A stretch of 64,000 bases of DNA, from contig SMSO01000032.1 of the NCBI GenBank assembly GCA_004764695.1, positions 5,736,483 through 5,800,482 of the forward strand, given 5' to 3'. The notes under the pieces were generated by a model, which was not told the origin of the DNA, searched no databases, and saw only the letters and a program-made list of their open reading frames with translations. The first letter of the stretch is position 1, and each line of letters starts with the position of its first letter. Position numbers and translations under genes: made by a program. The DNA is from Schizochytrium sp. TIO01 (taxonomy: Eukaryota; Protista; Bigyra: Labyrinthulomycetes). Below, piece by piece: positions 14,863 to 58,358 of this stretch.

Positions 14863-15474
14863 ATGGGTAATCAGGTACCACCACTAAGGCAGCAGATAGC
14901 CTTCGAAAGGAGGATGCTTCTTCGAAACGAGAGGGCGCTAATGCGGGAGATGCTGGAGATAGAACGAAACCTTAATCGTATAGGTAACGATATTCGACAA
15001 GCGGTTGCAAAAAATGAAGACATGGCCCTCTTACGCATGATGGGGCGTGACTATGCACACACGCAAGCTTGCATTAGGAATCTGAAGATGATGTGCTCGC
15101 ACCTCAAACGAACTCGTATGAAACTTGATATGGCCAAGACTATAGATAATTTATACAGCTCAGTGATGGGCGTTGTTGCAGTAATGAGTCGAATGAATGA
15201 AACAATGAATCTTCCAGTTATGAATCGAATTATCAATGAATATGAGGCACAGACGCATATGATGAACTTGACTATGGATGCTACTGAAGAAATGATGACG
15301 GTAGGAGAGAGCAGTATGATTGATGAAGTTGGCGATGAAGTGGTAAATAAAATATTAGATGAATTTGGGGTAAAAGCTGCAGATAGTATTGCAGAAGCTC
15401 CCAGGGACCCCATCATAAGGCTAGACCAAGGAGTGTCCAATTTAGAACAGCGTCTCTATAACCTTAGAACCTAG
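14863..15474 (+). CDS. ESCRT-III protein, Vps2/CHMP2-like
   Basis: Basic helical N-terminal half and acidic C-terminal half; MGVVAVMSRMNETMNLP..RIINEYE, DEVVNKILDEFG, and MIM1-like C-terminus LEQRLYNLR. Confidence 0.85.
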   Translation: MGNQVPPLRQQIAFERRMLLRNERALMREMLEIERNLNRIGNDIRQAVAKNEDMALLRMMGRDYAHTQACIRNLKMMCSHLKRTRMKLDMAKTIDNLYSSVMGVVAVMSRMNETMNLPVMNRIINEYEAQTHMMNLTMDATEEMMTVGESSMIDEVGDEVVNKILDEFGVKAADSIAEAPRDPIIRLDQGVSNLEQRLYNLRT

Positions 15475-15817
15475 TCCGATAAATTAAATTGAATACAACC
15501 TTACTTTGGATAGAAAGTGATGGATAAATCCACGCATTCAATGCTTCATCTTGGTAAAAAGACAGTATAGAACGTGAAAGTTCTTCGAGAGAGTTACTTT
15601 GCACCCCTAGTTTAATTTTAGGTATCGTTGATTCAGAGCGGTTTTGAAGACGACGCTCTATGATGCGTGCGAAGATATGAATATGGCTATGCTCACGACA
15701 AACATCATTGGTTGAAAGTATGGCCCTTATTTGGCCACTTTTAGTAACTTGCGAGTCGTTATGAAGAGCTCTTATGAGACTCCATAGAAGTAGGTCGCAT
15801 TCTCTATCATTCGTCAT
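15464..15817 (-). CDS. Hypothetical protein
   Basis: 117-aa ORF filling the gap between neighbours. Confidence 0.55.
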   Translation of the reverse strand: MTNDRECDLLLWSLIRALHNDSQVTKSGQIRAILSTNDVCREHSHIHIFARIIERRLQNRSESTIPKIKLGVQSNSLEELSRSILSFYQDEALNAWIYPSLSIQSKVVFNLIYRTRF

Positions 15818-15891
15818 ATTGATAGGTGTTTGCCTGGCTTAAAACTTATATTAGTAATCACTATACCCTAATAACTAGTTCAAATACGATA

Positions 15892-26582: not shown

Positions 26583-27677
26583 TTAAATCACTCCCATACT
26601 AGAATTAAATTGAGACGTCGATGACTCATGTGGTACAACCTGCGTGGAAGGCATGGACTTTGTTGTGGTAGTCGTGCTACTAGAACCAGCATAATTACGC
26701 CTCGATACAACGTACCAAATCAAGGCAACCGCACCAATTACAGCAACAAGCACACCAATAGAAATTCCTGCAACGACACCGCCTGATGTTCCACTGGACG
26801 ATGAGCTACTGCTACCTCCATCAGTACCTGTATCAGTTTCCGTCATTTTATACACAACGGTGCTGGTTGCAGAAACGAGCTTAGTAGAATCATAGGCCGA
26901 ATGTAGAGAGCAGGTAAGCTCATTCGCATCAAATGTGAAGGCCTTGCATGACGCTACGGAGGATCCAATGCAAGCTGATGCACATTCAATGAGACTTCCG
27001 AGAGATAGAATACTAATGAGATTCGAGGTTCCAAGACTCATTTCATTGAGAGCAGAATCAAAATAGGTTGCAAGTGTGCCGGTTTCCCGACCTGACAAAT
27101 AGGTTGGCGCATTTGTAGGAGCTGAAGTCGGAGCCTGTGAGTTTGAGCGTTCCTCCTTATCAGTTAGACACTGTGGTTTATTGCGGAACCAAAATAAGCG
27201 ATGACCTGCGCGGCCGGAACCCCGAATAGTAATTTCAGTACCGGTGTAGTCAGTATAAGGACCAACACATTGGTAAAGACCACATTGATCAGGGTTTACA
27301 TAAGATGGGTCTGGAATGTAAACTGCATTACATGACTCTGTTTCCAAACAAATCTCATAACATGCATTCCAATCATTGGTCGAACTATCATGAGATACCT
27401 TTGTACCGTAATCTGGGTCACCGAGCTTTGCACAACGAAAATTATTTAGATCCTTGATTTGAGTTGTGGTAAGTGAATCCCAATTGAAAGTATAAATGGA
27501 GCATGATTCAGGATCATCTTCTTCAACGACACACTCCTCTACAGTTCCTTTTTTTACAGTATAACTTGTGCTCGTACAAGATCCAACGGGAAGTGTGTCC
27601 GGTTGCGTAGCACCCATACAAAGACCTAGAATAGCACTTAGCACAAGTAAGGACGCTGTAGCTTGATTCTTGAACAT
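26583..27677 (-). CDS. Type I membrane protein with two PAN/Apple-like domains
   Basis: Signal peptide; ECASAC...CKAFTF...CSL pattern; APTSAPTNAPT linker; transmembrane helix. Confidence 0.8.
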   Translation of the reverse strand: MFKNQATASLLVLSAILGLCMGATQPDTLPVGSCTSTSYTVKKGTVEECVVEEDDPESCSIYTFNWDSLTTTQIKDLNNFRCAKLGDPDYGTKVSHDSSTNDWNACYEICLETESCNAVYIPDPSYVNPDQCGLYQCVGPYTDYTGTEITIRGSGRAGHRLFWFRNKPQCLTDKEERSNSQAPTSAPTNAPTYLSGRETGTLATYFDSALNEMSLGTSNLISILSLGSLIECASACIGSSVASCKAFTFDANELTCSLHSAYDSTKLVSATSTVVYKMTETDTGTDGGSSSSSSSGTSGGVVAGISIGVLVAVIGAVALIWYVVSRRNYAGSSSTTTTTKSMPSTQVVPHESSTSQFNSSMGVI

Positions 27678-27716
27678 TATGCATTATAAATGCACGAGGT
27701 ATAATTTAACTTATAT

Positions 27717-28910
27717 TCAGAGTGTCGGGATACCAAGTTGGGGTGGAGATTGTGTAGACGCAGCACCCCTACCAAGGATTGCATCTAAGCAGGAAACACT
27801 AGAATGTCCACCATACATAGCCTGGTATGAGGGTGAAATAGAACTATGTGGAATACCTAGAACATCATAGATCAGATTCTTGATTTCCTTCCTAAAACAA
27901 TAGAGCACTGTACAAACAACGAAAAGGAGGACCACAGGCACAACAATAACAACAATAAGGGTTGTGTTCAATCCCTCACTTGAATCTGTCACAATCTCCT
28001 TTTGACTGAGTTTCTCATAGGTTACTGAATTAGCAAGTGGCTCCAGCATGGACTCTGTAAAGTCGCTGTAAACACGACAAAGCAACTCCTGGTTCATGAA
28101 GGCAAAACCCATACAAGTCACAAGATTTGTGCACATGTCTGCACATTCTTCCAGGTTAGCGACATACTCTGCGCCGATAATATTTGATGTACCAAGCGAG
28201 TAACCATCAATTGATGGGGCATAATACACTGCAATGTCTCCAGTTTCATAGCCTGATTCAAAAGTGGGCGCACCAGTAGGTTGTGGTGTAGGCTCAGCTG
28301 TTGTAGGTCTATGAGTTGGAGCATTGGTGGGACCTGGTGTGGGGTTGCGAGTAGGAATCCCTGTTGGAGAGGGTGTGCCATTCTCAATATAGTCTAGACA
28401 CAATTCCTTATTCTTAAACCAATAGGCTCTGTTTGGCAAATTAGACTTAGTATTAAAAGTAAGCTCCTTCAGGTCTCCTGCATCAACGCTATTAGGACCA
28501 CTACATGGTGTTTCATAACATTGTCCGGCTTGACCTCCAGCCATAATAGTATGCACGCTACGACATTCGAAGCCTTCATAGTTCAAACATAATTGAAAGC
28601 AGTTCTCAAATGATTTACCCTCGGTGATATCAAATGTTTCTTTATTCATATTAGTTGCGCATTCTATTCGATTCACCAAATTGATTTGTGTGTCTGTAAG
28701 GGAGGGATCATCATAATTAGGCATCAGGACACTACAAGCCTTGGGTAATGAGTTGTCAATAATACATTCAAGAAGAGAGACGGTTACACCATTTCGTGTA
28801 ATGGTGTCACCTGTATCCCAACAGTCCGATGGTAGTGGATCAGCTTCGGCACCTTGTGATGAGCATAACGTGATAAACAAAACATTGAAAAACAAAAAGA
28901 CCTCCTTCAT
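27717..28910 (-). CDS. Type I membrane protein with two PAN/Apple-like domains (paralog of the previous gene)
   Basis: ECADMC...CMGFAF...CRV; PT repeats; shared ETG..A.Y...SLGTSN motif; first ATG at 28910. Confidence 0.8.
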   Translation of the reverse strand: MKEVFLFFNVLFITLCSSQGAEADPLPSDCWDTGDTITRNGVTVSLLECIIDNSLPKACSVLMPNYDDPSLTDTQINLVNRIECATNMNKETFDITEGKSFENCFQLCLNYEGFECRSVHTIMAGGQAGQCYETPCSGPNSVDAGDLKELTFNTKSNLPNRAYWFKNKELCLDYIENGTPSPTGIPTRNPTPGPTNAPTHRPTTAEPTPQPTGAPTFESGYETGDIAVYYAPSIDGYSLGTSNIIGAEYVANLEECADMCTNLVTCMGFAFMNQELLCRVYSDFTESMLEPLANSVTYEKLSQKEIVTDSSEGLNTTLIVVIVVPVVLLFVVCTVLYCFRKEIKNLIYDVLGIPHSSISPSYQAMYGGHSSVSCLDAILGRGAASTQSPPQLGIPTL

Positions 28911-28986
28911 GTGCTTATTATTTATAACAAAACGTGTTGGTATTTGATATATGTTAAATATCAATGTTGTGGTATGAATAGAATAA

Positions 28987-37600: not shown

Positions 37601-38200
37601 ACTGCTAGCATGATCAACTACCTCTAATTCTACAACCTCAACTCGGCGACTACATGGGTTGTTCAGCATAATCCCAAGTGCATATAGCACAGCTGCAAGA
37701 AAGCAAAATGCCTTTGACAAAGCAACCGCCTTGGAAAACGCTACACCGAATCCATTTGGCTCGAGAAGATCCAGTGTGAGTTCCGTCACATCACTGTCAG
37801 CATCATTACTTGTAAGAAAAGTTTGAATCTCTGTAAATAATACATTTGGATCTTCCACAATGGAGCTGGATGACACAAAACATAACCCTGTGAAAAAAAG
37901 CACTCTGAAAAGCCCAGCTACAGGTGAGGTAGATGCCTCATTACCAAGTAAAGATATTTCAAAGAGATCATCATCCTCAAAGGGTGAGCTAATACTGAAA
38001 AACATTACCACTATAGATGCCAAAGCATGAATTAAATCGTCCACAATGGAAGTGAAATCCCCAAGACTATCCAAATTCGAATAGCGATACCGATAATCCA
38101 AAGTATTATTAATGAAAATCACCATGGATGCCATAAACATAGCAAAATTAAACAATTGAACGGGAGTTGTTGAAGCCAAGTAGACATAGTCAAGCGCCAT
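34700..38200 (-). CDS. Large polytopic membrane protein
   Basis: 1166 aa with more than 12 hydrophobic segments and Cys-containing loops. Confidence 0.85.
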   Translation of the reverse strand: MALDYVYLASTTPVQLFNFAMFMASMVIFINNTLDYRYRYSNLDSLGDFTSIVDDLIHALASIVVMFFSISSPFEDDDLFEISLLGNEASTSPVAGLFRVLFFTGLCFVSSSSIVEDPNVLFTEIQTFLTSNDADSDVTELTLDLLEPNGFGVAFSKAVALSKAFCFLAAVLYALGIMLNNPCSRRVEVVELEVVDHASSSYGNNYSRKKQKNRSKQTQPVMDGHLTTQADHKEAHRVQEYYVSFLSTILPRAIIGLTLAVNCYALYDINTFTGVESEATRRIKQLATVGASSSVTYNSTTGLSVSELDQLLSLQSVDSTLQSVLLFFNDQFVESMAVVLMCVVAAYILLFYRRYTHSLPVITCVSSFCIAKLEEVSSNDDLFTIIMLVAIFNAVSTCAYFFSFGKVDDLLRFIPNLFYKVGLILCIIPLPLLFISYSHTWLEITMEPAGITQNMVEVVDSVDSQIMDTYTDLAEIVRKVNPCIRPLSVTVDLTNVDSREEGLQQIEDSLTEMRQETVKTGTFFNLEDCIQSENPYAYRWREFRKIRFLKRRACSNVESREDTMRSELIEELDQQLLEAQMSGKNLTDAAFEDPYYIDKFCSQIKCNSITAITATLFIMTLIPFVGTAASIMSKLVDAGYKVYRLANKVFKKIPNLLKIRSKTQKLKRRLKALSLSQSKRTVNATKTIAWLFFPIIVTAGIALTLIMLRRQRPHITVKGKESIFIDKLALGLKVGIGLALPMLLSDFAMYVVMLYFPEFLEIILDALPDSLVSATLELDVGYEALQYAYLVSFAGNACIVVGAVSYIYTEFAIALLTLPRRTFWFVWNYIIVGTVHFLKWFFQTALVRFIQTLGYGALFLIDLTRVHNTNHHVQTSAAFIRLGTDLKENIAYKLRIVGQFLLTLSDLRIQYLQPLLFSIIPIPIIIKATYQSDYVEMAYIMKPEAVQTATEIQDTTFTSSSVEDITDEFNDAGCGILDRFASILTKIANMDVIFEERIVPFKDDFLSMISQLDSLKTRLLEMIYVDSFPITYPIAHTTENIVVFAVPVGCTLLLFIVWILAALGSESKAFLQVLRLFRLDAKTSMDDFVGVVAALIFGISVTFIIIHIIVGSMIEILAETNIPFVSFQVSLGNKHYLAIIAHGCGMLSAIAHYTNIQVPPISTIRY

Positions 38201-45460: not shown

Positions 45461-47182
45461 TTACTTATTATCTTCGTCATTATAGTTTTGTTCACTAAAA
45501 ACTGCAATAGCTCTATTGACTTTTCCCTCTAGTGTATCACCTGGTACATTTGATAATTCAACCGATGATGCTTGGCTTTTATAATCATCATCATCTGAAT
45601 CCAGATCTTGTCCGTCATTTGCACCTTCAATCAGTCTTTCAATGGTGTCATCCGGAGTAATTTTTGCGCTGTCCAATTGAACATCATCATTATCAGATTC
45701 TTCTTCTTCTCGGTCAGATTCTTCTTCTTCTTGGTCAGAGTCTTCTTCTTCTTGGGCAGATTCCTCTTCCTGGTCAGCATCGCCTTCAGAAATACTGCCC
45801 CCGATTCCATCAGCTTGTTTAGATTCAACATCACTATCAGGCTCGGTACCTCCATCACTTACCACGCTATCATTATCAGACGATTCGGCACTATCATTAT
45901 GATCTTCATCATTGTTAGAACCAAGTTTCGAATTCGTAGTAACATGGGCATGGCGGTCATTATGGTTAACTCCATCTTGCGTAGTACCGGATCCGTGTGT
46001 GGATTCTGACTCGGATTCCACATCCGATTCTGTTGAATCTGAATCGGAATCACCTGATTCTTCTGCATCAGAATTCAACGATTCTTCATCATCTGAATCG
46101 TGAGCATTTTTATAGTCACTGTTCTTTAAATAATTATCGTCTGTACCGTCGTAATTATTTGAACTAGTAGAGCTCTCCGAACTACTTGAGCTAATAGAGC
46201 TCTCCGAACTACTTGAGCTAATAGAACTATCCGAACTACTTGAGCTAATAGAACTCTCTGAACCACTTGAGCTAATAGAGCTCTCTGAACTACTCGAGCT
46301 AATAGAACTCTCCGAACTACTCGAGCTAATAGAACTCTCCGAATCACTCGAATATGCGTCATCATCAGCGAACAAATCGTTTGAATTACTATTACTCATC
46401 GATGCAAGCGATTGACCATCGCTGTCAGAACTATATTCATCAAAATCATCACTGTGCTGCAAATATTCAGATTCTGACGATGAAGAAGATGCTGATGTAT
46501 TATCATCTTGGTCGTGATAAGCATTACCTGCAGTCTTCACACATGCTCCAGGATTAATATCGGTAAGAAAATCTGTGTAATCAATTCTTTCAATCATTTT
46601 CTGTTCGGCCACATATGTAGACGGGATGTATTTTGGATTTCCCTCACCCATACTTCTATTAGAATGGGCGTGGTGTAAATGGTCTAAGAGATCGCCTTTA
46701 AAAATATATTTTAAAGGTTCTATGATATTTACCAACTCGATACTATATTTATTAGTTTGATAGTACTCATTAAAAGGAACAGTGTTATTTTTGAAAAAAA
46801 TGGGTGCTAACATGAAACTGGAGAAAATATACTGTGCAAGAGTTTCACGATAATCATAATAGGCGTCTGCATCGCGTGGTTTTGTTGTTTTCAGTTCATT
46901 TTCTTCCTTCTCCAACTCCGTGAGCATATAGTGCATTGCATCAAGACAATAACCCGCTGTTGCAGTATTTAACTCCTTCTTGTCCTTATCATTTTCCTCA
47001 TCGTTATTGTTAGCAATGATAAGCATAAAATAGCTGAGAACAAGAACGGGGATGTGTGGTACATCCTTCATGAGTTTGTTCAAGTTGGTAGTTTTAAGAT
47101 TGTCAAATTTGTATTCTACGATGACATTGGGCAAATGCTTCACCGTGATATTCAATACCATGACGATGTATCCTTCAATCAT
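45461..47182 (-). CDS. Protein with very long Ser/Asp/Glu-rich C-terminus
   Basis: 573 aa containing SESSISSSS repeats and EEEDSD repeats. Confidence 0.8.
   Translation of the reverse strand: MIEGYIVMVLNITVKHLPNVIVEYKFDNLKTTNLNKLMKDVPHIPVLVLSYFMLIIANNNDEENDKDKKELNTATAGYCLDAMHYMLTELEKEENELKTTKPRDADAYYDYRETLAQYIFSSFMLAPIFFKNNTVPFNEYYQTNKYSIELVNIIEPLKYIFKGDLLDHLHHAHSNRSMGEGNPKYIPSTYVAEQKMIERIDYTDFLTDINPGACVKTAGNAYHDQDDNTSASSSSSESEYLQHSDDFDEYSSDSDGQSLASMSNSNSNDLFADDDAYSSDSESSISSSSSESSISSSSSESSISSSGSESSISSSSSDSSISSSSSESSISSSSSESSTSSNNYDGTDDNYLKNSDYKNAHDSDDEESLNSDAEESGDSDSDSTESDVESESESTHGSGTTQDGVNHNDRHAHVTTNSKLGSNNDEDHNDSAESSDNDSVVSDGGTEPDSDVESKQADGIGGSISEGDADQEEESAQEEEDSDQEEEESDREEEESDNDDVQLDSAKITPDDTIERLIEGANDGQDLDSDDDDYKSQASSVELSNVPGDTLEGKVNRAIAVFSEQNYNDEDNK
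46163..46345. repeat. 27-bp coding tandem repeat (~7 units)
   Basis: GAACTACTTGAGCTAATAGAGCTCTCC-like units encoding SESSISSSS. Confidence 0.85.
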
Positions 47183-47250
47183 TCTATTGAATTTGGATAT
47201 GTATATATGTTGTTGTTTACTAGATGTTCAGCTGCAGCGTAGGATAAATT

Positions 47251-47799
47251 ATGATTACGGTACCTTTTAAACGCACGAATCACGTTATCTCAATCCGTTT
47301 CAGAGGTAGAAAAAGTTTAGACGATCTATTTAGATGTGTTCTAGCGGGTAAGTACTGTCCTAAAAAGTTTTCGGCGATTACCCTAAAGGTGTGTAACCCC
47401 CCTGCAACTGTGATTCTCTTCAGCACAGGGACGGCATCTTGTATGGGTATCCGTTCGTATTACGGTGCTTTACTTGTGTTACATTATATCAAAAAGAAGC
47501 TCGGGTTAGAACTGATTCACATAATGTTAACCAATATAGTCAGTAACTTCAGTGTGGCGGATCTGTTTCCGTCACTAGATATCGATCGGTTTCAAATGTG
47601 CAATATGCGGTTTTGTTCGTATAACCCAGCAGTGTTTCCAAGTTGTTCGTATAAAAGAGATAACAAGAACATAAAGATTAACATTTTTAGTTCTGGGCGT
47701 ATCATTGTAGTCGGTACCAAGACCGATCAAGATATTCATGAAACAATAGAATTTATATGTCAAGAGTTCGCGAAACTATTTACCATTAAAGGAGCATAA
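47251..47799 (+). CDS. TBP: TATA-box binding protein
   Basis: Two-repeat fold: YCPKKFSA..ATVILFSTG..CMG and YNPAVFP..INIFSSGRIIVVGTK. Confidence 0.9.
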   Translation: MITVPFKRTNHVISIRFRGRKSLDDLFRCVLAGKYCPKKFSAITLKVCNPPATVILFSTGTASCMGIRSYYGALLVLHYIKKKLGLELIHIMLTNIVSNFSVADLFPSLDIDRFQMCNMRFCSYNPAVFPSCSYKRDNKNIKINIFSSGRIIVVGTKTDQDIHETIEFICQEFAKLFTIKGA

Positions 47800-48601
47800 C
47801 TGGTTCGCTGAATTTTGTTGTTTCCATACTTGTGGTAGTGTGACTGGGTTTTGCATCCTTTTGTAGCTCGGGAGGAGAAGTTGGTACAGGGACCGAGGAT
47901 AAATCCTGGTCGTACATGTAAGGATCTGTGAGTTCTATTTCATCTTCGCTATCCGACGCAGCTAGATATTCATCAATCTCACGGTCCAGATCATCAGTCA
48001 TATCGGACGTCAGTATGTTAACCTTTACAGTATCTGAAATAAGGTTGTTAATGTTTTCAATTTCGCGATTTGTGTCATCAATAGTATCAAAATTCTCTTG
48101 TAACTCATCCAAATCGATACCCTCAATTGTGCTCATCGATTTCTTAAGATCTGCGATATTAGCTGCCATTGCATGTGTTTCTATTGAATTCTCAATATTA
48201 ATTTTCGCTCTTACAAAGATGTTGATTTGATTCTCAATAGTAGCAATTTGTTTCATGACCATTTTTAAATGGAGTCGACAGTTGGTCTCCATTGATTTAC
48301 GAGTAATACCACCAGTGACTCTGACTGACTTGTCTTTCAGATTTTTCAGTGTAACCAGTCCTTCTTTTTCCTTCCTACGCAAGTCTACAACGCGCCCTTC
48401 TAGCCTCAAGATTGCAGCATCCAATTTAGCTACGTCTTGATCTACCATGTTAGCTGTAGAAATACTTTGTGAGAAGAAAGATCGCATCAACTGAGAACAA
48501 ATGCCTCCTGATGCAGTATGTGGCATACCTTCCAACTGATTAACGGTATGGCTACTAGTAGTTGTGATACTATTATTTCTCGATTGCATGGGGCGAGTCA
48601 T
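47786..48601 (-). CDS. ESCRT-III protein, Snf7/CHMP4-like
   Basis: KQIATIENQINIF..KINIENSIE...LKKSM..IDLDELQENFDTIDD...EIENINNLIS...DDLDREIDEY. Confidence 0.75.
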   Translation of the reverse strand: MTRPMQSRNNSITTTSSHTVNQLEGMPHTASGGICSQLMRSFFSQSISTANMVDQDVAKLDAAILRLEGRVVDLRRKEKEGLVTLKNLKDKSVRVTGGITRKSMETNCRLHLKMVMKQIATIENQINIFVRAKINIENSIETHAMAANIADLKKSMSTIEGIDLDELQENFDTIDDTNREIENINNLISDTVKVNILTSDMTDDLDREIDEYLAASDSEDEIELTDPYMYDQDLSSVPVPTSPPELQKDAKPSHTTTSMETTKFSEPVMLL

Positions 48602-49703
48602 CTACCTCATTTTTCTTTTCATCATATAATCGATTGGATGATTTTACGAAAACGGCCCAAGATTTGTCATAGTCTGATTCATCAAAGGGGTGAGAATAAT
48701 TTGTCGGTTTTCCCGTAACATGACATCGTATAGTTGATAGTTGCCATTCAGTAAACGTGTATGATGTATCAAAGTAAATGAGCACATGATCGAGTAATTT
48801 CTTTATGTAATGTTCCTGAAATTCGTCTAATGAAACATGCTGGAGTAATAGTGACAATGAGCCTGTACGCAAAGATATTAACTTCCCAACCGGCACACTC
48901 CTGGAATTATTATTTCCACGTCTCTTCACCCAAAGGTCGATGAAAAAAAATAGAATCGTCATACAAGCGGCAAACCTATCAACGCGAGCATTGACATCCA
49001 TAAAATTTGACCCCACTGGCCGCTTCCCAATACTGGGTAAAATATAGGGAACTGTTCCAACAGCAGTTCTTCTATCACCATAAGGACAGGAGAACCCAAA
49101 ATCAATCAATCTCCACTTTTCTCCATCAAAGGTTATATTCTCAGGTTTGATATCCCTATGGCAAATTGATAACTTCTCGAGATGATCCACTATACGCGGG
49201 ATATCATACATAAGACGCCGAACAGCTTGCTTTGAGCACTTGTTTGTCCGGATCAGATCGAAAGCATCTAAACCATAATTATGTAAGACAATATGTTTGC
49301 TTCTTGCTTCAGTATCATTGTACTCATCTACCAATGGTGTCTCAAAGCCCAGCTGTTTTAGACTTTTGAGTATATGGATTTCATTAACGGCAAGCTTATA
49401 TCCTAATTCTGTTGGCTTGAAACTCTTCAGAACAAATTTATCGGATTTGAAAATTAGTGCGGTGGGTGAACGGTTACAAATCTCTAATTGCTTCTCTGGA
49501 AACCAGGTTGTGATAAATTCTACCAAATCAGTGTTTATGTTGAGAGTCTGAATGCACTTTTGAAATTCATGAAAGTGTGGCTTGACTTGATCATTATTTT
49601 TATACTCGTCGGTTATTTTTAGGGCTATTTCATTTGTACTTTGTGCATCACAACAAGATTGTGTACAACGCGACTTTATAAAGGAAACAATCTGACCGAT
49701 CAT
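48573..49703 (-). CDS. Ser/Thr protein kinase
   Basis: VLK, NEI, HRDIKPEN, LIDFG and GTVPY motifs. Confidence 0.9.
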   Translation of the reverse strand: MIGQIVSFIKSRCTQSCCDAQSTNEIALKITDEYKNNDQVKPHFHEFQKCIQTLNINTDLVEFITTWFPEKQLEICNRSPTALIFKSDKFVLKSFKPTELGYKLAVNEIHILKSLKQLGFETPLVDEYNDTEARSKHIVLHNYGLDAFDLIRTNKCSKQAVRRLMYDIPRIVDHLEKLSICHRDIKPENITFDGEKWRLIDFGFSCPYGDRRTAVGTVPYILPSIGKRPVGSNFMDVNARVDRFAACMTILFFFIDLWVKRRGNNNSRSVPVGKLISLRTGSLSLLLQHVSLDEFQEHYIKKLLDHVLIYFDTSYTFTEWQLSTIRCHVTGKPTNYSHPFDESDYDKSWAVFVKSSNRLYDEKKNEVDDSPHAIEK

Positions 49704-49762
49704 ATTGATCTAATTATATTGTATTATTCGAAATCTATTTAGGTGAGCGTTATAACACACAG

Positions 49763-50350
49763 ATGCCCTCTATAGTCAGCTTTGATATTGGATATGTTCA
49801 CCTGGCCATGGTGAATGCCAAGGTGACCTGGGATGGTCGCGTGGAATGTGTTGACCATTGTATGTTGTATGATCTACGCAAAATCAAATGCAATAGCTCT
49901 TGTAAGCATTTTGATGCAAAGGACAAATCTACGTCCCACCGTCTAATACACTTTGTAAAGAATCATCACTTCATCCTGCGCCGTGCTGACGTCATTCTTC
50001 TTGAACTACAACCACTGCAAGGTTTAAAGGCAGTTGAGCAATGTCTTTATATGCTACTCAAAATGCGATTCGGGAGTAGAGTTAAGGTTCGTCTTGTTGC
50101 GCCGGTCTCAGTACATAGTCTGTTCAAGATGTCATCAGACTACGATCTAAGAAAGGTCGAGTCTACTGCCAAAACGGAGAAATACCTAGCCACAATGGCA
50201 GCGTTTAGGCGCTTCAAGCGAAAGCATGATATGGCGGATGCAATGTTGTTCATTTTGTATTATACACAAAGTGGGTTATTTAAAAGGGATTTCGAACAAA
50301 AAACTAACAATCCATTTATTTCATTTGAATATTGCTCACCTAACACTTAA
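49763..50350 (+). CDS. Holliday junction resolvase (poxvirus A22/RuvC-like)
   Basis: VSFDIG..HLA, ILLELQP, RK..S and KHDMADAML motifs. Confidence 0.9.
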   Translation: MPSIVSFDIGYVHLAMVNAKVTWDGRVECVDHCMLYDLRKIKCNSSCKHFDAKDKSTSHRLIHFVKNHHFILRRADVILLELQPLQGLKAVEQCLYMLLKMRFGSRVKVRLVAPVSVHSLFKMSSDYDLRKVESTAKTEKYLATMAAFRRFKRKHDMADAMLFILYYTQSGLFKRDFEQKTNNPFISFEYCSPNT

Positions 50351-51376
50351 TTCAATCTTATTTTTCTGATGAATACCATTGGTAGTTTCATAGATTTCAC
50401 TATTATCTTCGTCGTCACTTGAGTCAATATGGTGGTCAAAACTGAGTGTGCGAGTTCGCTGAACCAATCTTTCATTTGATCCATCATTGAAAACCCTAAC
50501 TCGCTGCCGTTGTGCTGCACGACTGTACAGGAGCATGAGAAAAATAGCTAGACCATACCCAAACAATACACCCAATATACTACCCAATCCCCACGGAACG
50601 AGAGTAACTATCCACTTTCTATGTTGAAGAGATGCCAGAGTACAAACTATCAGAACAAGTAGTGGTAGAATTATATACATCGTCATAAATCGGCTATAAA
50701 TCGTGAATTGGTCACAATGGAAGAGATAGGCAAAGTGGAAAAGTACAAACGCAAAGGCCGTGGAGAAACTGATACCTAAGAGGGCTGAAGAAAATGCTTC
50801 GTACATGTTGCCTGCATAAGAGTATCCGCCAAAACACACATCATCAACTTCGTCGGTAAACTTGATACAAGTCCCGAATGGTTCCCTACAAGTAACATAC
50901 TCAATGGATCGACTATCTGCCCATGTACTTTCTATATTCTGCTCAAATGTCTCAATAAACAAATTGGTTCCTCTAAAGAGAGTCTTAACCCAAATTACAT
51001 CTGTTTGTTCAGCATGAAAGCCCACTCTATCTGTAATTGGAGTCAATGGATTTAGATAGCTAACTTTTGTTTGAAATATATCGTATAGTGCGAATATGTA
51101 TCCCGAACAAGACAAAGTATTTAATTGATCATCATAGAGTAGACAATGGTGGTAAGAACACATTGTTATATTTCTTACATGTGTGTACTGTACATTTTTG
51201 GAAGATTGTTTACTTGAACAGAGTGCCACACTGGTGTCTGTGTTATAGGTGCAACTAGTTGCATTACCGAACAAGACAATCGGATTCTGAGCTTCATCAA
51301 AATCAACTTGGAATGCCGTACCTGAATATGCAAAAATTGCAAGCAGCAAAACCCTAACTGTCGAATATCCATGCAT
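50336..51376 (-). CDS. Membrane protein with Cys-containing ectodomain (paralog of 21335-22069)
   Basis: Signal peptide, NTLSCSG, NPLTP, three transmembrane helices. Confidence 0.75.
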   Translation of the reverse strand: MHGYSTVRVLLLAIFAYSGTAFQVDFDEAQNPIVLFGNATSCTYNTDTSVALCSSKQSSKNVQYTHVRNITMCSYHHCLLYDDQLNTLSCSGYIFALYDIFQTKVSYLNPLTPITDRVGFHAEQTDVIWVKTLFRGTNLFIETFEQNIESTWADSRSIEYVTCREPFGTCIKFTDEVDDVCFGGYSYAGNMYEAFSSALLGISFSTAFAFVLFHFAYLFHCDQFTIYSRFMTMYIILPLLVLIVCTLASLQHRKWIVTLVPWGLGSILGVLFGYGLAIFLMLLYSRAAQRQRVRVFNDGSNERLVQRTRTLSFDHHIDSSDDEDNSEIYETTNGIHQKNKIELSVR

Positions 51377-51430
51377 ACGTGTTGAAGTTACTGCTTGTCT
51401 TGCTCACTGACTTGATTCATATATCCCACG

Positions 51431-52414
51431 ATGGTGGCTGTCATTGTTTTCGACCTCGAAACAACAGGATTTTGCCCCATGCCTCTTATTTCAAACTACC
51501 ATAGGGTAGTACAAGTTGCTGCCACTCGAATTGATACTGACGTCAATCTACATTTCTCAACATTTGTGAACCCTGAGATGCTGATCCCACCTCAGAGTAG
51601 TAAAATCCACCGGATTACAAATGAATTAGTTAAGGATGCCCCATGCTGGGCTGATGCTGTTGATAAAATGATGCTCGAACTAGACCTTGACACTCAATCT
51701 GAGATTCTCATGGTTGCTCATAATGCAACCCACTTTGACGAGATTATTTTCCGAAAGGAATGTCTCCGTGACCCACCACGGATATATTTGAATAATCTTA
51801 CATTCGGCGACTCCCTTCCAGCTGTTCGCAAACTGTATCCCGGGTGGGAGTCTTATCGTCTCGAGGATGTACATCGGAAGTTGTTCGGGACTGGTATAGA
51901 TGAAGCGCATCGTGCAGATGCTGATGTAGATGCACTGGTTCACATTGTGAAGTACATGATTGATACTTGGGGTATCAACGTACTTACTCCATTCACACTA
52001 ACAGATTCTCACCATGTAAGTGATATGCGTTTCTTTGGAGTGTATAGGTCACAAAAATGTTATGAAACAACAGGCGCTAGTACAATTGGAGAACTTCGTA
52101 GTGTGCTGAGAGCAGATGCTTGGAAATACAGAATTAGAGAGTGGATGCAGTGTGACATTGGCATAGGGGATATCACTGCGCAACTTACCATAATTTCCCA
52201 GCTTTCACAAATCCCACTACACCTGGGTCCACAACTTATTAACATTCTCTTTCCAGGCTCTACACTTAGGAGGCATACAGCGCGCTACGAGGACTGCTTA
52301 AATGATGTTGATTACTATATAAAGAAAAGGTACGTTGATCAAGGTTGTTCCAAAAATATGACTATCTATTTGCGCGGTCTTCATAAATGTTTTCATCAAA
52401 TTAAAGAATTTTAG
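51431..52414 (+). CDS. DEDDh 3'-5' exonuclease (DnaQ-like)
   Basis: VFDLETTG, IHRIT, VAHNATHFD and AHRADAD motifs. Confidence 0.9.
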   Translation: MVAVIVFDLETTGFCPMPLISNYHRVVQVAATRIDTDVNLHFSTFVNPEMLIPPQSSKIHRITNELVKDAPCWADAVDKMMLELDLDTQSEILMVAHNATHFDEIIFRKECLRDPPRIYLNNLTFGDSLPAVRKLYPGWESYRLEDVHRKLFGTGIDEAHRADADVDALVHIVKYMIDTWGINVLTPFTLTDSHHVSDMRFFGVYRSQKCYETTGASTIGELRSVLRADAWKYRIREWMQCDIGIGDITAQLTIISQLSQIPLHLGPQLINILFPGSTLRRHTARYEDCLNDVDYYIKKRYVDQGCSKNMTIYLRGLHKCFHQIKEF

Positions 52415-53225
52415 ACTCTTTTCTACCTTCAATATAGTTCATAAGGGAAACCTTGGACGTGTTCGTCACAAACGCAATGCTATCCACATTGGACTTATCT
52501 CTGCCCATGTATTCGAATAAAGTCAATGCGAGGACGGTGTAGGATCCCAAGGAACCATTCTTCCGAGTATTTCCAAGGAAGAGTTCCCTAATCTGTCGCT
52601 CATCACGGAACTCAAGCCCCAAGAACGTACGAATATATGGGATGCTTCTGGTAACAAGAGAGCGTTGGGAAATGCCAGTGTGCTTGCAAAAGCGTCCGAT
52701 GCTTTTGCTAATCTTTTCGATACCAAGAATCTCCTCCATTTCTTTTATATTTGCGTGACGACCGATGCTGTTTCGGACGATGACAATTGCAGCAACAATC
52801 ATCTGGTCTGTTCCTTTATTTCTAAACATCTTTGGATACTTTTTAAGTAACAGCAGTGTTCGACTAAATACTCGATCATCTTCACCCAACTGATCCACAT
52901 AATGACGCAATTTGGCTATGTTTCTTTTCTCAGTGGCTTCATCCCGAAAAACCCTGTCCATCATGTGACTATGAGCAGTTTTCTCTTGTTTGTGTTCAGG
53001 CGACTCATTTTTACTAACTTGAGGAGCATGGTAGAAGCCACGTAAGTTGCTATTATAACACGAAGCAACAATTGCTCGTTTTCCACGCTCTACGCGGTAG
53101 TTAAAGTTACGGACAACAACTCCACAGTATCGACAGATGGTATCATCTGTCCGTGAGTCGTGAACGAATTGATTCTCTGCGCGTTGACAGTTCTCACACG
53201 CAAGAGATTCTAAGATACTAGACAT
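52401..53225 (-). CDS. TFIIB: Transcription initiation factor TFIIB
   Basis: N-terminal zinc ribbon CENC...D....ICRYCGVV followed by cyclin-fold-like helices. Confidence 0.8.
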   Translation of the reverse strand: MSSILESLACENCQRAENQFVHDSRTDDTICRYCGVVVRNFNYRVERGKRAIVASCYNSNLRGFYHAPQVSKNESPEHKQEKTAHSHMMDRVFRDEATEKRNIAKLRHYVDQLGEDDRVFSRTLLLLKKYPKMFRNKGTDQMIVAAIVIVRNSIGRHANIKEMEEILGIEKISKSIGRFCKHTGISQRSLVTRSIPYIRTFLGLEFRDERQIRELFLGNTRKNGSLGSYTVLALTLFEYMGRDKSNVDSIAFVTNTSKVSLMNYIEGRKESKIL

Positions 53226-53242
53226 GAGTTAGGGGTTTGGTG
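53226..53242 (-). promoter_or_regulatory. Recurrent motif before TFIIB: CACCAAACCCCTAACTC
   Basis: Directly abuts the ATG at 53225. Confidence 0.55.
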
Positions 53243-53254
53243 AACTTTATATCT

Positions 53255-53731
53255 TTATGCTAAATTAGAAAGTTGTGAATGCATGAAATTAATTATATCG
53301 CCATTAGGTTCTCTTAGATGAGCAACAATGGCAAGTCCGACAGAACCGTCTTCGCGTTTGAAGAGTTCATATTGCTGTTTAGATATAGGTGAAGTATGAC
53401 GTAATGATACACGGAACGACTTACGTTTCCTTAGGATATCCCATAACATATTTCCAATAGGAACCTTTCTGCGACAATAGAGACACTTGTATCGTACATC
53501 ATTCATCGATACGCCTTTCCTAAATACTTCACACACCTTGAAGAAACAGTCATGGCATACATGGAATGTACACCCACCAGGACAATTGTCAATCACCAGA
53601 CTACATCGTCCCATGCATACTACACATTCCAACTTTTGCTTCTTTGCATTTGATGTGTTTGTTGAACCGATTTCACTTGCCGAAATTTTCTCCACTGCAG
53701 CATCTTCGTCCAACTCTCGCTTGGTTGCCAT
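53255..53731 (-). CDS. RING-finger protein (putative E3 ligase)
   Basis: CVVC...C...C.FH.CHDC...CLYCR pattern. Confidence 0.75.
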   Translation of the reverse strand: MATKRELDEDAAVEKISASEIGSTNTSNAKKQKLECVVCMGRCSLVIDNCPGGCTFHVCHDCFFKVCEVFRKGVSMNDVRYKCLYCRRKVPIGNMLWDILRKRKSFRVSLRHTSPISKQQYELFKREDGSVGLAIVAHLREPNGDIINFMHSQLSNLA

Positions 53732-53993
53732 AATCTCTCTTTGTCCGCACTATAAATCGCTGCGCAACTATCAGCTTGATACCACTGATTGGCAGAAGCA
53801 GATGTTGAACTTGCCCTCGGCCGATGATTAAGGGTCTGCTTGTCATATAAGTCAGGCAAGGGGTACAAGAATGATAAATCTACTTCAAATGTCCCAAGTT
53901 CATCGAATGGAGCCATGCTAGTTAGTACTGTGAGTGTATGTTACTAAGAGTCCAAAAATATTCAAATGAATGGTTAATATAATGAAGTGTTTG

Positions 53994-54479
53994 TTAGTCC
54001 AACCGACGCTTCTTGGTAGAATGATCAAGATAAAGCCGACCAATAATCCGCTTTGATCTGGAAGAATCACACTGGCTCTTTTTACTTCTTCCTACAATAC
54101 TATCATCTTCTTCATCACTTTCACAATGTACCTCATCATTTGTGTCAGACTCGTCCGATTCTTCTTCATTAAAATCAAATTCTTCTTCCGACACAGAGTC
54201 GCCCACATCACCATCCTCAAACTCGATATCTTCATCATCATCTTGCACAAATCCATCCTTAATAAATCCGTATTTAGTCGTTTCAAATTGCACACTGCAT
54301 TCCTGGCACTGTAGAGTATCTAAAATAGGCGTTTCCTTCTGACATGCTGGACATGTAATATAATCTACCTCCTCCTCATCATCTGTATTCTCAATAGAGA
54401 TCCCTTGATCATTTTCTGATTCAGAACTGCTGGATCCACACAAATCAAAAACATCGTCGTCTCCACCCAAGTCACTCAT
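53994..54479 (-). CDS. Acidic zinc-ribbon protein
   Basis: CPAC...CQEC within a D/E-rich context; ends KKRRLD. Confidence 0.7.
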   Translation of the reverse strand: MSDLGGDDDVFDLCGSSSSESENDQGISIENTDDEEEVDYITCPACQKETPILDTLQCQECSVQFETTKYGFIKDGFVQDDDEDIEFEDGDVGDSVSEEEFDFNEEESDESDTNDEVHCESDEEDDSIVGRSKKSQCDSSRSKRIIGRLYLDHSTKKRRLD

Positions 54480-54756
54480 AGTAGTACGTATCTGGCGAGA
54501 GTATTAAGGGTCTGCTGATAGTGCATTGTAATATATGCAAATTGTTCAACTCAGATTCCATTCCGCTACCATATCAAAATCCAATGTGAGTGTCTGTTCA
54601 ATCATCAGAATCTTTTTTTTGAAACTGGTTAGAAAGAACTTTTCCTTTGTTGTCAACGACGCAGCATCGTAACTTCCATGTTTCACTGAATAATACAATA
54701 GTATGAAAAGCAAAACCCTAACATCATTAAACATTTCTTTATCAGGTGTAAGGTCG

Positions 54757-55053
54757 ATGAGTGACACACCGACAATCTCCGATACATCATTCACACCTGT
54801 CAAGGAAGAACAATTTGATAACTTCTTCGTAAAACTTACAAGCTCCACAGGTACAGACTCTGAAGCCAGTGATTCTGATGATGATGATATGGACATATTT
54901 GATAAATCAATCTCTTGGTCTACTGACTCCGGTACTCTTCCATCAATTGATCATATAAAGGTTGAAACAAATAATGACCCCTTGGTACCTATAACAGTGA
55001 TTATTGATATCATTAAGAAGATTAACAACAGTGTTGCTATTATTCTTGCTTAG
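54757..55053 (+). CDS. Small acidic protein
   Basis: The recurrent motif at 54709-54722 favours ATG 54757 over 54703. Confidence 0.5.
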   Translation: MSDTPTISDTSFTPVKEEQFDNFFVKLTSSTGTDSEASDSDDDDMDIFDKSISWSTDSGTLPSIDHIKVETNNDPLVPITVIIDIIKKINNSVAIILA

Positions 55054-55192
55054 GCGAAGAAGATCGCCATCTTACATAGCTTGCGAATACACATGCCCAC
55101 ACAGAAAAAATAATAAATAACACAGGTACAATGATTAGACTTAAACCTACCAATAACTCTATCATATCAGACTCCTTCTCAACAACACGCAT
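55040..55192 (-). CDS. Small single-transmembrane protein (absent from the ORF track)
   Basis: MRVVEKESDMIELLVGLSLIIVPVLFIIFSVWACVFASYVRWRSSSPKQE*. Confidence 0.4.
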   Translation of the reverse strand: MRVVEKESDMIELLVGLSLIIVPVLFIIFSVWACVFASYVRWRSSSPKQE

Positions 55193-55276
55193 TCTTGCCG
55201 ATGAAATTATGGTAACACCCCCAATAAATATATATAGTATATATAGTTATGAATCAATAAAATTTCTTTAAACACC

Positions 55277-57097
55277 ATGATAGAGAAAAGAACAGAATAC
55301 AGTAACGATAGCTTCATCTTTAGGGACTTGCTGAAGGAGTTGTCTATAATCAACAATAGAGAAGAACGAGAAACTAAGTTCCGCTTTCGCCGCTTAATTG
55401 ACCGATATATACCAGAGACTCACCGAATGCAGCAGCTGGATAATACCGAAACAATTGATGATGAGAATGATATCAGTGGCACCTATGGAAACATGGATGA
55501 AACGATCTCGACCACCGGTCCCCAGGTCTTATGTCCAGGTGATCGGACGTTACAGTTGATTTTTCGTAATCTGGAACGCGTATTCCGATCACCGTCACAA
55601 GTGGAATTTCATAAGATGTTCACAGGTGCGATTCTTCGCCAAATCTATAAAGATGACTATAAAAAGCATTGTCATCGAGTGAAAAAGGAGTACGGTTTTG
55701 AATCGTTCAAACAATTAGTTCTCTTATGTTGTCCCAGACGTTTCGGTAAAACATGGTCGGTCTCAATGTGGACGCTGGTAATTGCTATCTGCCTGCCTGG
55801 TTCGCAAATTGCTATATTCAGTCCTGGTAGACGTCAATCCACAGCAATGATTAATCACATCTATAATTTCTGTAAAAAAATGGATGAGACTGATCGAGTG
55901 ATTCGTAGAAATGAAGAAAAAATGATTCTCCGCAGTGTCGATGGATCTGAATCGGTTATCAATGCTTACCCGAGTTGTGTACGCACACTAAAGGGTGTCT
56001 CAGGAAACATTCTTATCCTCGAGGAGATGGCAGTCATTGATACTGATATCATTTATGAAGTAGTTGCACCACTACTTATCATTGATGAAACCTCAATGAT
56101 TGGTATTTCCACCATCACTGGAGAGAACAACTACATGACAAAGTACCTTCAGCAAAGAGATAACAATGGAGAATTATTGTTTCATTCTAGGCACTTCTTC
56201 CTAGCATGTAATGCATGTATGGAGGCAGGGAAGGCAGCAAATTGCAAACATAACTCTTACATGTTACCCAATTGGTCCAGTCCGCGCAAGCGCCGTGTAA
56301 TCAACTGCATTATGGAGGGTCAAGAAATGCTTTTGAATCAGGAACTGGGTGGTATTGCTAGTTCAGTAAATGGACGTGCCTTTGCTGCGCATATGATTCA
56401 ACGCTGTTTCCAAAAGGATCCGTGGCATATTGAACCCAACGACTATTACCACCAAATTTTTGTATCCATTGATCCTAATGGTGCAGGAAAGAATTCAGAT
56501 TTCGCAATTACAACTATGCTTCGAATCGACGGAAAATATATTATTATTGGTATGGAGAGTTTTACAAGCAAAACCGCTGCTGAGAATCATGCATTGATCC
56601 TGCGCCATCTAAAGTCACTTGAAGCAAATCCTTGTTTCAAAAATGCACTCAAGGTGTTCATTATCGAGTCCAACTTGGGGCTGGAAAGCGAACACATCAA
56701 TCATATGCTCTACGATCGAGGCGTCAGTAACTTCTTGGTCATGAAGGAGAAGGAAAACACAGAGAAAATAGGCTTCTTAACGACCAACGGTCTCAAGAAT
56801 TTGGCAGTCGAACGGCTCCGAGAAGTTCTTGCAGAGGGGACTCTTCGGTTATGCCCCGATAAAGATTTGGTATGTATTTCAAGAGCCAAGTGGGAAATCA
56901 AAGAAATGCTCGAGAAACAAATGTCTGATTTCCAGGAAGTGGTCAAGGACAACTTTCAAAATGTTGGCCCCCCTCGAAAAATGTACAGTGGTAAGTCAGT
57001 TGGTAAGGATGATTTAATTATGACTTTACTACTCGGCATTTTCTGGAGCTCTGTATTCTTCAACGATGCCAGGTACCGTCAGTATCATACATACTAA
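55277..57097 (+). CDS. DNA packaging terminase large subunit (herpesvirus UL15-like ATPase-nuclease)
   Basis: CPRRFGKTW Walker A, ILILEE Walker B, IGIST, nuclease VSIDP, IESN and YSGK...DDL. Confidence 0.92.
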   Translation: MIEKRTEYSNDSFIFRDLLKELSIINNREERETKFRFRRLIDRYIPETHRMQQLDNTETIDDENDISGTYGNMDETISTTGPQVLCPGDRTLQLIFRNLERVFRSPSQVEFHKMFTGAILRQIYKDDYKKHCHRVKKEYGFESFKQLVLLCCPRRFGKTWSVSMWTLVIAICLPGSQIAIFSPGRRQSTAMINHIYNFCKKMDETDRVIRRNEEKMILRSVDGSESVINAYPSCVRTLKGVSGNILILEEMAVIDTDIIYEVVAPLLIIDETSMIGISTITGENNYMTKYLQQRDNNGELLFHSRHFFLACNACMEAGKAANCKHNSYMLPNWSSPRKRRVINCIMEGQEMLLNQELGGIASSVNGRAFAAHMIQRCFQKDPWHIEPNDYYHQIFVSIDPNGAGKNSDFAITTMLRIDGKYIIIGMESFTSKTAAENHALILRHLKSLEANPCFKNALKVFIIESNLGLESEHINHMLYDRGVSNFLVMKEKENTEKIGFLTTNGLKNLAVERLREVLAEGTLRLCPDKDLVCISRAKWEIKEMLEKQMSDFQEVVKDNFQNVGPPRKMYSGKSVGKDDLIMTLLLGIFWSSVFFNDARYRQYHTY

Positions 57098-57770
57098 CCG
57101 GTATATGACGATTGTCACCCAGACCTTAAAAAATAGAGAATGTAACAATTCAACCATGCAAACTGATAACATATTGGGGCGTAATAAAAGGACTTTTGCA
57201 GATCTACTAAATAACTCGAATCCCAATGATTTTGACTTGTGTGGCGGAGATAATGATGATATGGGGGGTGGCGCTAGTGTACGACCTATGCACTTCGAGG
57301 ACTTAACAGCTATCAAATTCAAGGACTGCTTCGCGTGCAAGTACATTAATGCAAACTCTATGAAAGACAATCCAGAATTCGTCAGCCTTATGCGCTTATA
57401 TTGTGATAACTCTGATACAGTCAGTGGTGATGCAATCTTCAGACTTGTCAAAGAACACTATGATCGCTATTGTAGACCACACATTCCACTTGAGGACAGA
57501 GAGTGGTCTCTAGAGTGCATCAAGGAACATTTTACAAGACACACTTCTTTCCCTACTGACGAATTGAACAAACAATTGAAGCTCCTTCGCTCGATACGAG
57601 ACAACATGATATCAACCGCCCTCATGGCGAATGAGGACGGTACAGAAGTTGAGCCTTGTAATAATAACATTAAAAACATTGTTGTTTTACAAAAGGAGAT
57701 TCGTGAAATCATGCAACTCAAGAATAAAATTAATACGATGGTAGGATATAATGAAACATTAGATTACTGA
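57066..57770 (+). CDS. Putative zinc-binding helical protein next to the terminase
   Basis: CFAC ... WSLECIKEHFTRH, then a coiled coil; the real start is probably a downstream ATG. Confidence 0.75.
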   Translation: MPGTVSIIHTNRYMTIVTQTLKNRECNNSTMQTDNILGRNKRTFADLLNNSNPNDFDLCGGDNDDMGGGASVRPMHFEDLTAIKFKDCFACKYINANSMKDNPEFVSLMRLYCDNSDTVSGDAIFRLVKEHYDRYCRPHIPLEDREWSLECIKEHFTRHTSFPTDELNKQLKLLRSIRDNMISTALMANEDGTEVEPCNNNIKNIVVLQKEIREIMQLKNKINTMVGYNETLDY

Positions 57771-58358
57771 TCTTTGGTCACTCGACGCTGATTTTTCACT
57801 ATAAGATAGTACACCGTGGGGAAGCTTTGGCAGATCATAGAAAGCATTTAAGTCATTATTCACCCTCGATTCTTCTAATAGTTCATCCGCAAGGTGTCTC
57901 ACTTCTTCTGTAATGGGTGTATCTATGGCATTTGACTTCAACATAGAATCGATTTGAATAGAGTCTAGAGTGCGCTCAATGATATCAATAGACTCGCCGT
58001 TTGACAGTGTACATTTTCCTAAAGAACTAAAAACAGAGACAAGTTCGTTGCTTAGCTCGTCAGTTTTAATAGCCTCATCTACCTGATACATTATAATACG
58101 CATCTTGAGAATAATTTTCAAGTAGCGTTCAGATGCTTTTTGCAAGTGTGCCAGGTGAACAGCGTATAACTCTGCCTCCGAGTTACGACCATTTTTGGTC
58201 AACGAATCAAGTACCTTTTTGTCCCTGATCATGTCACGCGTGGTTTCACCTCGTAACCTATCTAGACCTCTAATGAGGAGCTTAATTTTACTCTGACTCA
58301 TACAAAGGACATGGATGTTCTCTAGACGCTCCTGATCAGCACTTTTAGAAGCTCCCAT
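57759..58358 (-). CDS. ESCRT-III protein, Did2/CHMP1-like, with N-myristoylation motif
   Basis: MGASKS; G..SEAELYA...YLKI..KM..I..QVDEA; TP..EEV..L pattern typical of CHMP1. Confidence 0.6.
   Translation of the reverse strand: MGASKSADQERLENIHVLCMSQSKIKLLIRGLDRLRGETTRDMIRDKKVLDSLTKNGRNSEAELYAVHLAHLQKASERYLKIILKMRIIMYQVDEAIKTDELSNELVSVFSSLGKCTLSNGESIDIIERTLDSIQIDSMLKSNAIDTPITEEVRHLADELLEESRVNNDLNAFYDLPKLPHGVLSYSEKSASSDQRSVI

Follow-up and report, generated by a model that had tools for sequence, protein, structure and literature searches.

We analysed a 64,000-nucleotide stretch of Schizochytrium sp. TIO01 (contig SMSO01000032.1, positions 5,736,483 to 5,800,482 of the forward strand; hereafter the window) and found that three of its open reading frames (ORFs), judged from sequence, are ESCRT-III proteins of the Snf7 family and belong to three different subfamilies. 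ORF1 (14863-15474, + strand) encodes 203 amino acids, ORF2 (47786-48601, - strand) 271 and ORF3 (57759-58358, - strand) 199, and these coordinates agree exactly with those of a first-pass annotation that had proposed a virus-encoded set of CHMP2-, CHMP4- and CHMP1-like subunits. The difference in class and the CHMP2 label, which falls to ORF1, are borne out; for ORF2 and ORF3 the assignment is shown to class level, and we infer the CHMP4 and CHMP1 labels. The window corresponds to AurliV-2, a chromosomally integrated mirusvirus of the thraustochytrid Aurantiochytrium, of which it is a near-identical, collinear allele. By homology, the three-class set is kept in related thraustochytrid mirusviruses, including AurliV-1, an episomal, virion-producing virus of the same host that is extremely divergent from AurliV-2 (both taken here from the main text and printed tables of PMC12606086). 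Single viral Snf7 genes have already been published; what is new is a conserved set that spans three classes, as the Snf7-Vps2-Did2 module of yeast does, and that occurs in a system available in culture.

For typing, ESCRT-III genes were gathered from 41 archaeal genomes in the phylum around G001, 37 of which had a match, and the 43 archaeal proteins were split into two groups of 20 and 23, classes A (Vps2/24/46) and B (Snf7/Vps20/Vps60). Against the PDB, the class-B profile ranked Asgard ESCRT-IIIB and Snf7 first, and the class-A profile CHMP1B, CHMP1A and CHMP2A. Across the 246 six-frame, stop-to-stop frames of at least 60 amino acids in the window, the top three matches of the Asgard class-A profile were ORF1-3 (E = 2.1e-14, 1e-6 and 0.021 for the three ORFs; 0.41 for the next frame), and ORF2 was the sole match of the class-B profile with E below 1 (E = 0.0025). 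Hidden Markov model (HMM) scores for classes A and B were 47.5 and -0.8 bits for ORF1, 22.8 and 1.6 bits for ORF3, and 8.2 and 11.1 bits for ORF2 (200 shuffles), with three control ORFs at 2.1 bits or less. When 62 window proteins were scanned with Pfam, the Snf7 model (PF03357, curated cut-off 27.3 bits) matched ORF1 above its cut-off (37.6 bits, E = 2.2e-9) and ORF3 below it (21.8 bits, E = 1.6e-4); ORF2 gave no match at full length and 30.5 bits over residues 26-245 (E = 3.5e-7), which is above the cut-off. The family assignment made in the first-pass annotation is thus upheld by Pfam Snf7 and the Asgard profiles together; on Pfam alone it holds for ORF1 and for the trimmed ORF2 and falls short for ORF3. 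An NCBIfam scan matched no ESCRT model. Each protein combines a basic N-terminal part with an acidic C-terminal part (+9/-11 in ORF1, +8/-23 in ORF2 and +3/-8 in ORF3).

ORF1 is a CHMP2/Vps2-type protein with a Met-Gly start. Its best match among PDB sequences was human CHMP2A (E = 4.2e-11), followed by Vps24 (1.8e-5) and CHMP1A (6e-3), and it scored 145 bits against a CHMP2 profile from which it had been left out. In a 71-row quick tree, which included no eukaryotic CHMP1, 4, 5 or 6 rows, ORF1 fell within the eukaryotic CHMP2 clade (support 99) and formed one branch with AurliV-1 ORF 200 (P0013) and a Hondaea protein (P0017; SH-aLRT 93). Among 1.84 billion representatives, 514 matched ORF1 at E 0.001; the 150 of these that were listed were all CHMP2-like by inspection, except for two Asgard-type proteins and one CHMP3-like protein. 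With ORF1 and ORF2 as queries, word-based homologue searches found near-copies alone, and with ORF3 they found nothing; scans of viral_contigs with ORF1, the terminase, P0121 and alignment A2 as queries gave no confirmed relative. An aligned Met-Gly start is common to ORF1 and 10 related short CHMP2 proteins; it also occurs in 36 of 139 other ORF1 matches and hence is not virus-specific.

The C-terminal tail of ORF1 carries the core of a MIM1 motif, a predicted helix that would bind the MIT domain of Vps4 (LEQRLYNLR, residues 194-202, fitting LxxRLxxLR; 15442-15468, + strand). The full consensus D/ExxLxxRLxxL[K/R] (PMC11998489; PMC5840170) has an acidic residue three positions ahead of its first Leu, where ORF1 has Val, so the MIM1-like tail of the first-pass annotation stands as to its core and lacks its acidic first position. 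Within the last 25 residues of the 139 other ORF1 matches, partial and mis-called rows included, 33 have the full motif and 62 the core; the full motif is also present on AurliV-1 ORF 200. The proteins P0009, P0015, P0016, P0024, P0047, P0121, P0129 and P0136 make up a short, Met-Gly-starting CHMP2 branch that is sister to the thraustochytrid-virus copies (support 90); they are probably viral, with an eroded MIM1.

ORF2 is, by profile comparison, closer to class B than to class A: hhalign aligned it to class B with E = 2.1e-4 over 163 columns versus E = 0.054 over 58 columns for class A, and in the quick tree it joined Asgard class B (support 88) on a long branch. Its true start is likely nearer Met26, and its layout includes an insert of about 15 residues between helices 1 and 2 and a long acidic tail. 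The absence of a Met-Gly start, which we take to be a CHMP6 feature, speaks against CHMP6, and a CHMP4-like protein is suggested. The motif scan gave no canonical MIM1 and no match to MIM2 ([L/V]Px[V/L]P; PMC11998489; PMC5840170), and a proline-rich VPTSPP occupies the place expected for MIM2 (residues 239-244). In the ESM Atlas, an Snf7 cluster came first for ORF2 (0.93), with recognition values below the reliable range, and serves as a lead only. PDB sequence searches with the full and trimmed forms returned no relevant match, tblastn against phages returned none, and a single-sequence fold of low confidence (pTM 0.23) matched generic coiled coils alone.

ORF3 is assigned to class A but outside CHMP2. 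None of 200 shuffles scored as high as its 22.8 bits against the Asgard class-A profile, profile alignment gave E = 1.1e-4 over 152 columns for class A, 0.25 for class B and 0.023 for eukaryotic CHMP2, and in the quick tree it lay outside the CHMP2 clade on a long branch. A single-sequence AlphaFold model (pLDDT 72) shows a five-helix layout (residues 6-54, 58-98, 103-113, 123-140 and 150-172). With this model, the first 13 Foldseek rows listed were all ESCRT-III (CdvB, CdvB2, IST1 and CHMP1B/IST1) at E = 0.017-0.11, none reaching 0.001, and in a VIA comparison CdvB2 reached Z = 9.4 over 153 residues, level with helical bundles, and the result was not discriminating. An Snf7 cluster also came first for ORF3 in the ESM Atlas (0.96; Snf7 on 30% of members), again with recognition values below the reliable range and as a lead only, and a PDB sequence search found no CHMP match at E 1. 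The protein starts with MGxxxS and is predicted to be myristoylated, and lipid anchoring of ORF1 and ORF3 through their Met-Gly starts is predicted. A complex prediction for ORF1 with ORF3, in which the alignment was not used, scored 0.18, under the mark, and gave no answer.

Gene order in AurliV-1 adds to the typing of ORF3, which is likely CHMP1/Did2. Three genes stand in the same order and orientation there, namely the terminase, a conserved gene of unknown function and ORF 492 (rows 103, 105 and 107 of the printed table), and ORF 492 has a CHMP1b-like protein as its best phmmer match (E = 8.8e-9; PMC12606086); this synteny supports both orthology and the CHMP1 reading. ORF 492 has no Met-Gly start. 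After helix 5, ORF3 carries LPKLP (57819-57833, - strand), which fits the MIM2 consensus and is rated weak because it is absent from ORF 492. The conserved ORF between the terminase and ORF3 (57066-57770, + strand) is kept in AurliV-1, where it was positive in whole-cell proteomics, and in Hondaea; its product is a possible packaging or egress partner.

All three proteins have AurliV-1 counterparts, ORF 200 (CHMP2-like), ORF 242 (for ORF2) and ORF 492, the latter two compared through the printed table rows of PMC12606086, and the top matches of the three are three Hondaea fermentalgiana proteins. ORF 242 is unannotated there, and its top match is the same as that of AurliV-2 ORF 675. The convergent pairing of ORF2 with the gene for TATA-binding protein (TBP) is likewise kept: row 173 lists ORF 242 in forward orientation, and row 175 lists TBP in reverse. 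In AurliV-2, ORF1 corresponds to ORF 26 (202 of 203 residues identical), ORF2 to ORF 675 and ORF3 to ORF 839, the last again one residue off; offsets at four genes are 37,080-37,115 bases. Only ORF 26 bears an Snf7 label in the AurliV-2 table, ORFs 675 and 839 having no ESCRT label, and neither Snf7 nor ESCRT occurs as a word in the main text of PMC12606086. Within the window, pairwise local identities among the three proteins were 30/111, 32/138 and 26/131; out of 300 shuffles, 18, 34 and 3 attained these values. With the proteins so barely alike, recent duplication is rejected, in keeping with the first-pass annotation.

The viral origin proposed earlier is supported by the surrounding genes. 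The window is gene-dense, has no introns and encodes a terminase, an HK97-type protease, TBP, TFIIB, PIF1 and SNF2 helicases and a sulfatase, and we assign it to the Mirusviricota type on its HK97-type virion module, its eukaryotic TBP/TFIIB and its AurliV-2 match. Around the ESCRT-III genes lie TBP (47251-47799, + strand; Pfam TBP, E = 1.6e-22), the convergent neighbour of ORF2; a herpes/phage-type terminase large subunit followed by the conserved ORF (55277-57770, + strand; Pfam TerL_ATPase and DNA_pack_N), upstream of ORF3; and an HK97-type capsid maturation protease (59896-60408, + strand; TIGR01543, E = 0.064), a marker of the mirusvirus virion module with the same label in the AurliV-2 table. 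The major capsid protein is outside the 64-kb window. Contamination by host genes was ruled out by the intronless, gene-dense viral context and a GC content resembling that of the neighbours.

Mirusvirus capsids give this set a candidate task. In this host, transmission electron microscopy shows capsids budding at the nuclear envelope and into coated cytoplasmic vesicles by a mechanism described as open, and for this, the only system in culture, the route across the nuclear envelope and the acquisition of a lipid envelope are listed as a task still open (PMC12606086). We consider the odds about even that the three virus-encoded proteins co-assemble at the necks of budding capsids, recruit host Vps4, and remodel and cut the membrane. 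The Snf7-class protein (ORF2) would form the first membrane-bound spiral, a role suggested because its AurliV-1 counterpart is the most transcribed of the trio and the sole one seen as protein: read values are 55/67 for ORF 200, 116/176 for ORF 492 and 501/1334 for ORF 242, and whole-cell proteomics is positive for ORF 242 (PMC12606086). A Vps2-Did2 pair (ORF1 with ORF3) would then bind and bundle the spiral, by analogy with yeast Vps2-Did2 acting without Vps24. There, Snf7 by itself recruits Vps2-Did2, this pair bundles the Snf7 spiral and stimulates Vps4 more efficiently than Vps2-Vps24 does (PMC7479521), and Vps2 can stand in for Vps24 (PMC8143795). The MIM1 core of ORF1 would bring in host Vps4, and fission might be completed with host Ist1, Vps24 or Vps20. 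This activity would be located either at the inner nuclear membrane, to which herpes simplex virus 1 recruits host ESCRT-III (PMC6107581), or at the cytoplasmic vesicles where capsids bud, and in the integrated, mostly silent copy of the window the set would be active upon reactivation alone.

Host factors enter this proposal on account of what the virus tables contain. As the first-pass annotation had noted, no Vps4 is visible in the window: the Pfam scan found none among the 62 proteins, and its sole PF00004 match was weak and on the PIF1 helicase. A label search of the tables for AurliV-1 and for AurliV-2 likewise found no Vps4-type gene (PF00004, PF09336, PF04212, Vps4, spastin or katanin), so host Vps4 would be needed, and no Ist1, Bro1, MIT or Vps24 label; a 220-residue AurliV-1 protein with a structural Vps4 match (E = 0.014) is too short and the match too weak to count. 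Efficient fission in yeast required Vps24, Did2, Ist1, Vps20 and Vps4 (PMC7479521). The viral set equals the yeast Snf7-(Vps2-Did2) module without the remaining factors, which favours a polymer that is viral in part and completed by factors of the host, and the earlier claim that the virus carries its own membrane-scission polymer was overstated given the absence of Vps4, Ist1, Vps24, MIT and Bro1 labels from the tables of its relatives. A bolder version, that a complete minimal ESCRT-III set replaces herpesvirus-style borrowing, forming virus-specific filaments at capsid budding necks with Vps4 alone given by the host, is a tentative prospect that we place below even odds.

Several observations weigh against co-assembly of the three proteins. 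The genes are unlinked, with gaps of 33 kb and 9 kb between them. ORF2's HMM preference for class B is modest (11.1 versus 8.2 bits), and both ORF2 and ORF3 sit on long branches of about 3 changes per column in the quick tree. ORF3 has no MIM1 (LxxRLxxL[K/R]) in the motif scan, a motif that CHMP1 proteins carry, and of 10 virus-like CHMP2 relatives, 9 have no MIM1 core in their last 25 residues. Ist1, Vps24 and Vps20, required for efficient fission, are unlisted in the virus tables. Reads in AurliV-2 are uneven (436/234 for ORF1, 6.8/9.2 for ORF3, no data for ORF2), with the capsid protease at 1.6/1.9 and capsid genes called negligible; proteomics detected none of the three as protein in AurliV-2, and in AurliV-1 none is marked in the supernatant fraction and ORFs 200 and 492 are undetected as protein (PMC12606086). 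The expression that the first-pass annotation presupposed is therefore present as transcripts in published data, unevenly so in AurliV-2 and without protein there.

Scattered genes and discordant expression are what would be expected if the three proteins worked separately as modulators or decoys of host ESCRT, forming no single viral polymer; a Vps2-like protein might, for example, tie up Vps4 or reroute endosomal traffic during persistent infection. In AurliV-2, the reads of ORF1 number in the hundreds against near silence of the virion genes. Most published mirusvirus examples have a single Snf7 (3 of the 4 genomes given Snf7 rows in file 10 of PMC12768974), so one subunit can suffice. We nevertheless regard separate action as unlikely: two viruses of great divergence retain one member per class, counterparts exist in Hondaea, places among core genes are conserved, and the combination equals a biochemically defined yeast module (PMC7479521).

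Persistence of the infection, with capsids at the nuclear membrane (PMC12606086), raises another use for the set, namely resealing or remodelling the nuclear envelope after capsid exit so that the host is kept alive in a non-lytic infection, with the bud neck itself not cut. ESCRT-III regulates the integrity of the inner nuclear membrane (PMC6107581). The Pfam scan identified no CHMP7- or LEM-like adaptor in the window, however, and budding into cytoplasmic vesicles is seen too (PMC12606086); we regard resealing as improbable.

Most improbable, in our judgement, is that the genes of the integrated copy are drifting relics of an ancestral set with no present role. Low overall expression of AurliV-2, the absence of its proteins from the supernatant (PMC12606086), and the strong divergence of ORF3 with loss of its MIM1 would fit such decay. 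Yet all three frames are intact in the window, and those of ORF2 and ORF3 are intact in the other runs covering them: four other DNA runs over 47200-58500 have no indels other than in-frame 3-base ones inside these two genes, and 4 of the 6 substitutions listed in them are silent, too few for a selection test. ORF1 is well transcribed and present in an MMETSP transcript set, and genome erosion is not reported for AurliV-2 (PMC12606086). At least half of the window's sequence words are present in 15 listed sequencing runs, one of which may be its source, and no RNA run is on record among those listed. Among four presumed-RNA contig sets, two, each from a different study, contain a contig of 1 kb whose end lies near the ORF3 stop, and one covers parts of ORF2 at low depth; these are weak hints and were not used as support.

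Novelty is lower than the first-pass annotation assumed, since Snf7 is already a published core function of Mirusviricota, with four Snf7 orthogroups of 368, 253, 166 and 73 genomes (PMC12768974). In the tables of that paper, MIRUS_G_0012 has one CHMP2A-like and one CHMP1B/IST1-like gene, as well as an AAA ATPase that matched Vps4 by structure, the orthogroup of the ATPase being mixed (a CbbX-like match in another genome). The paper's main text calls mirusvirus Snf7 'protein trafficking' and does not mention ESCRT, CHMP classes, Vps4 or egress, and its file 10 holds no genome with three classes; three large supplementary files lay outside this comparison. Our literature search, with subscription papers and bioRxiv supplements outside its scope, found no description of a multi-subunit, three-class viral ESCRT-III set. 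A 2022 paper on megavirus trafficking genes reportedly may list viral Vps4 or ESCRT genes.

Three known systems come closest. AurliV-1 has the same three-part set, two of the genes with the same neighbours and a MIM1 tail on the CHMP2-like protein, and differs from the virus of the window in being episomal and producing virions, with all three genes transcribed and ORF 242 seen as protein. The yeast Snf7-(Vps2-Did2) module (PMC7479521) comprises the same three classes with MIM1 on Vps2; unlike yeast, the virus tables list no Vps24, Ist1, Vps20/ESCRT-II or Vps4, ORF3 lacks MIM1 and ORF2 has its insert between helices 1 and 2. Herpesviruses (PMC6107581; PMC12456135) are likewise duplodnaviruses whose nuclear capsids cross membranes by budding, but they borrow host subunits through the nuclear egress complex, whereas the mirusvirus subunits are virus-encoded and no recruiting factor was identified. 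The set offers three concrete egress candidates, of which two lack annotation in AurliV-2 and one is abundant but without annotation in AurliV-1, together with a specific biochemical model. Scission studies would gain a natural minimal ESCRT-III set, and egress in the herpesvirus lineage before, or apart from, the nuclear egress complex would come into view. Should the viral set prove to work with host Vps4 alone, it would be the first virus-built multi-subunit ESCRT-III machine, testable in cultured Aurantiochytrium.

Other features of the window include a 1166-residue protein (34700-38200, - strand) for which Pfam gave no match; it has many segments predicted to be hydrophobic and is a candidate component of the membrane or envelope. 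Enzymes and adhesins with a signal peptide or membrane anchor are encoded at 9860-11812, 26583-28964 and 38255-39736 (all - strand), namely an ADAM/reprolysin-like metalloprotease, two tandem PAN-domain proteins and a sulfatase; sulfatases are tied to cell-wall escape in PMC12606086. Long low-complexity proteins without a Pfam match lie beside TBP (45461-47182, - strand) and beside the capsid protease (60405-62384, - strand), their compositions being acidic/Ser-rich and Gln/Asn/Pro-rich. The kinase gene next to ORF2 (48573-49703, - strand) has a one-base deletion at 48943 in one other DNA run (X7), either a strain frameshift or an assembly error. About 1.5 kb at 12596-14079 contains no ORF of 80 amino acids or more in an otherwise dense window, and 1135-1461 and 1664-2260 (- strand) encode tandem paralogues with near-identical N-terminal halves, the first of which is short and may be a truncated duplicate.

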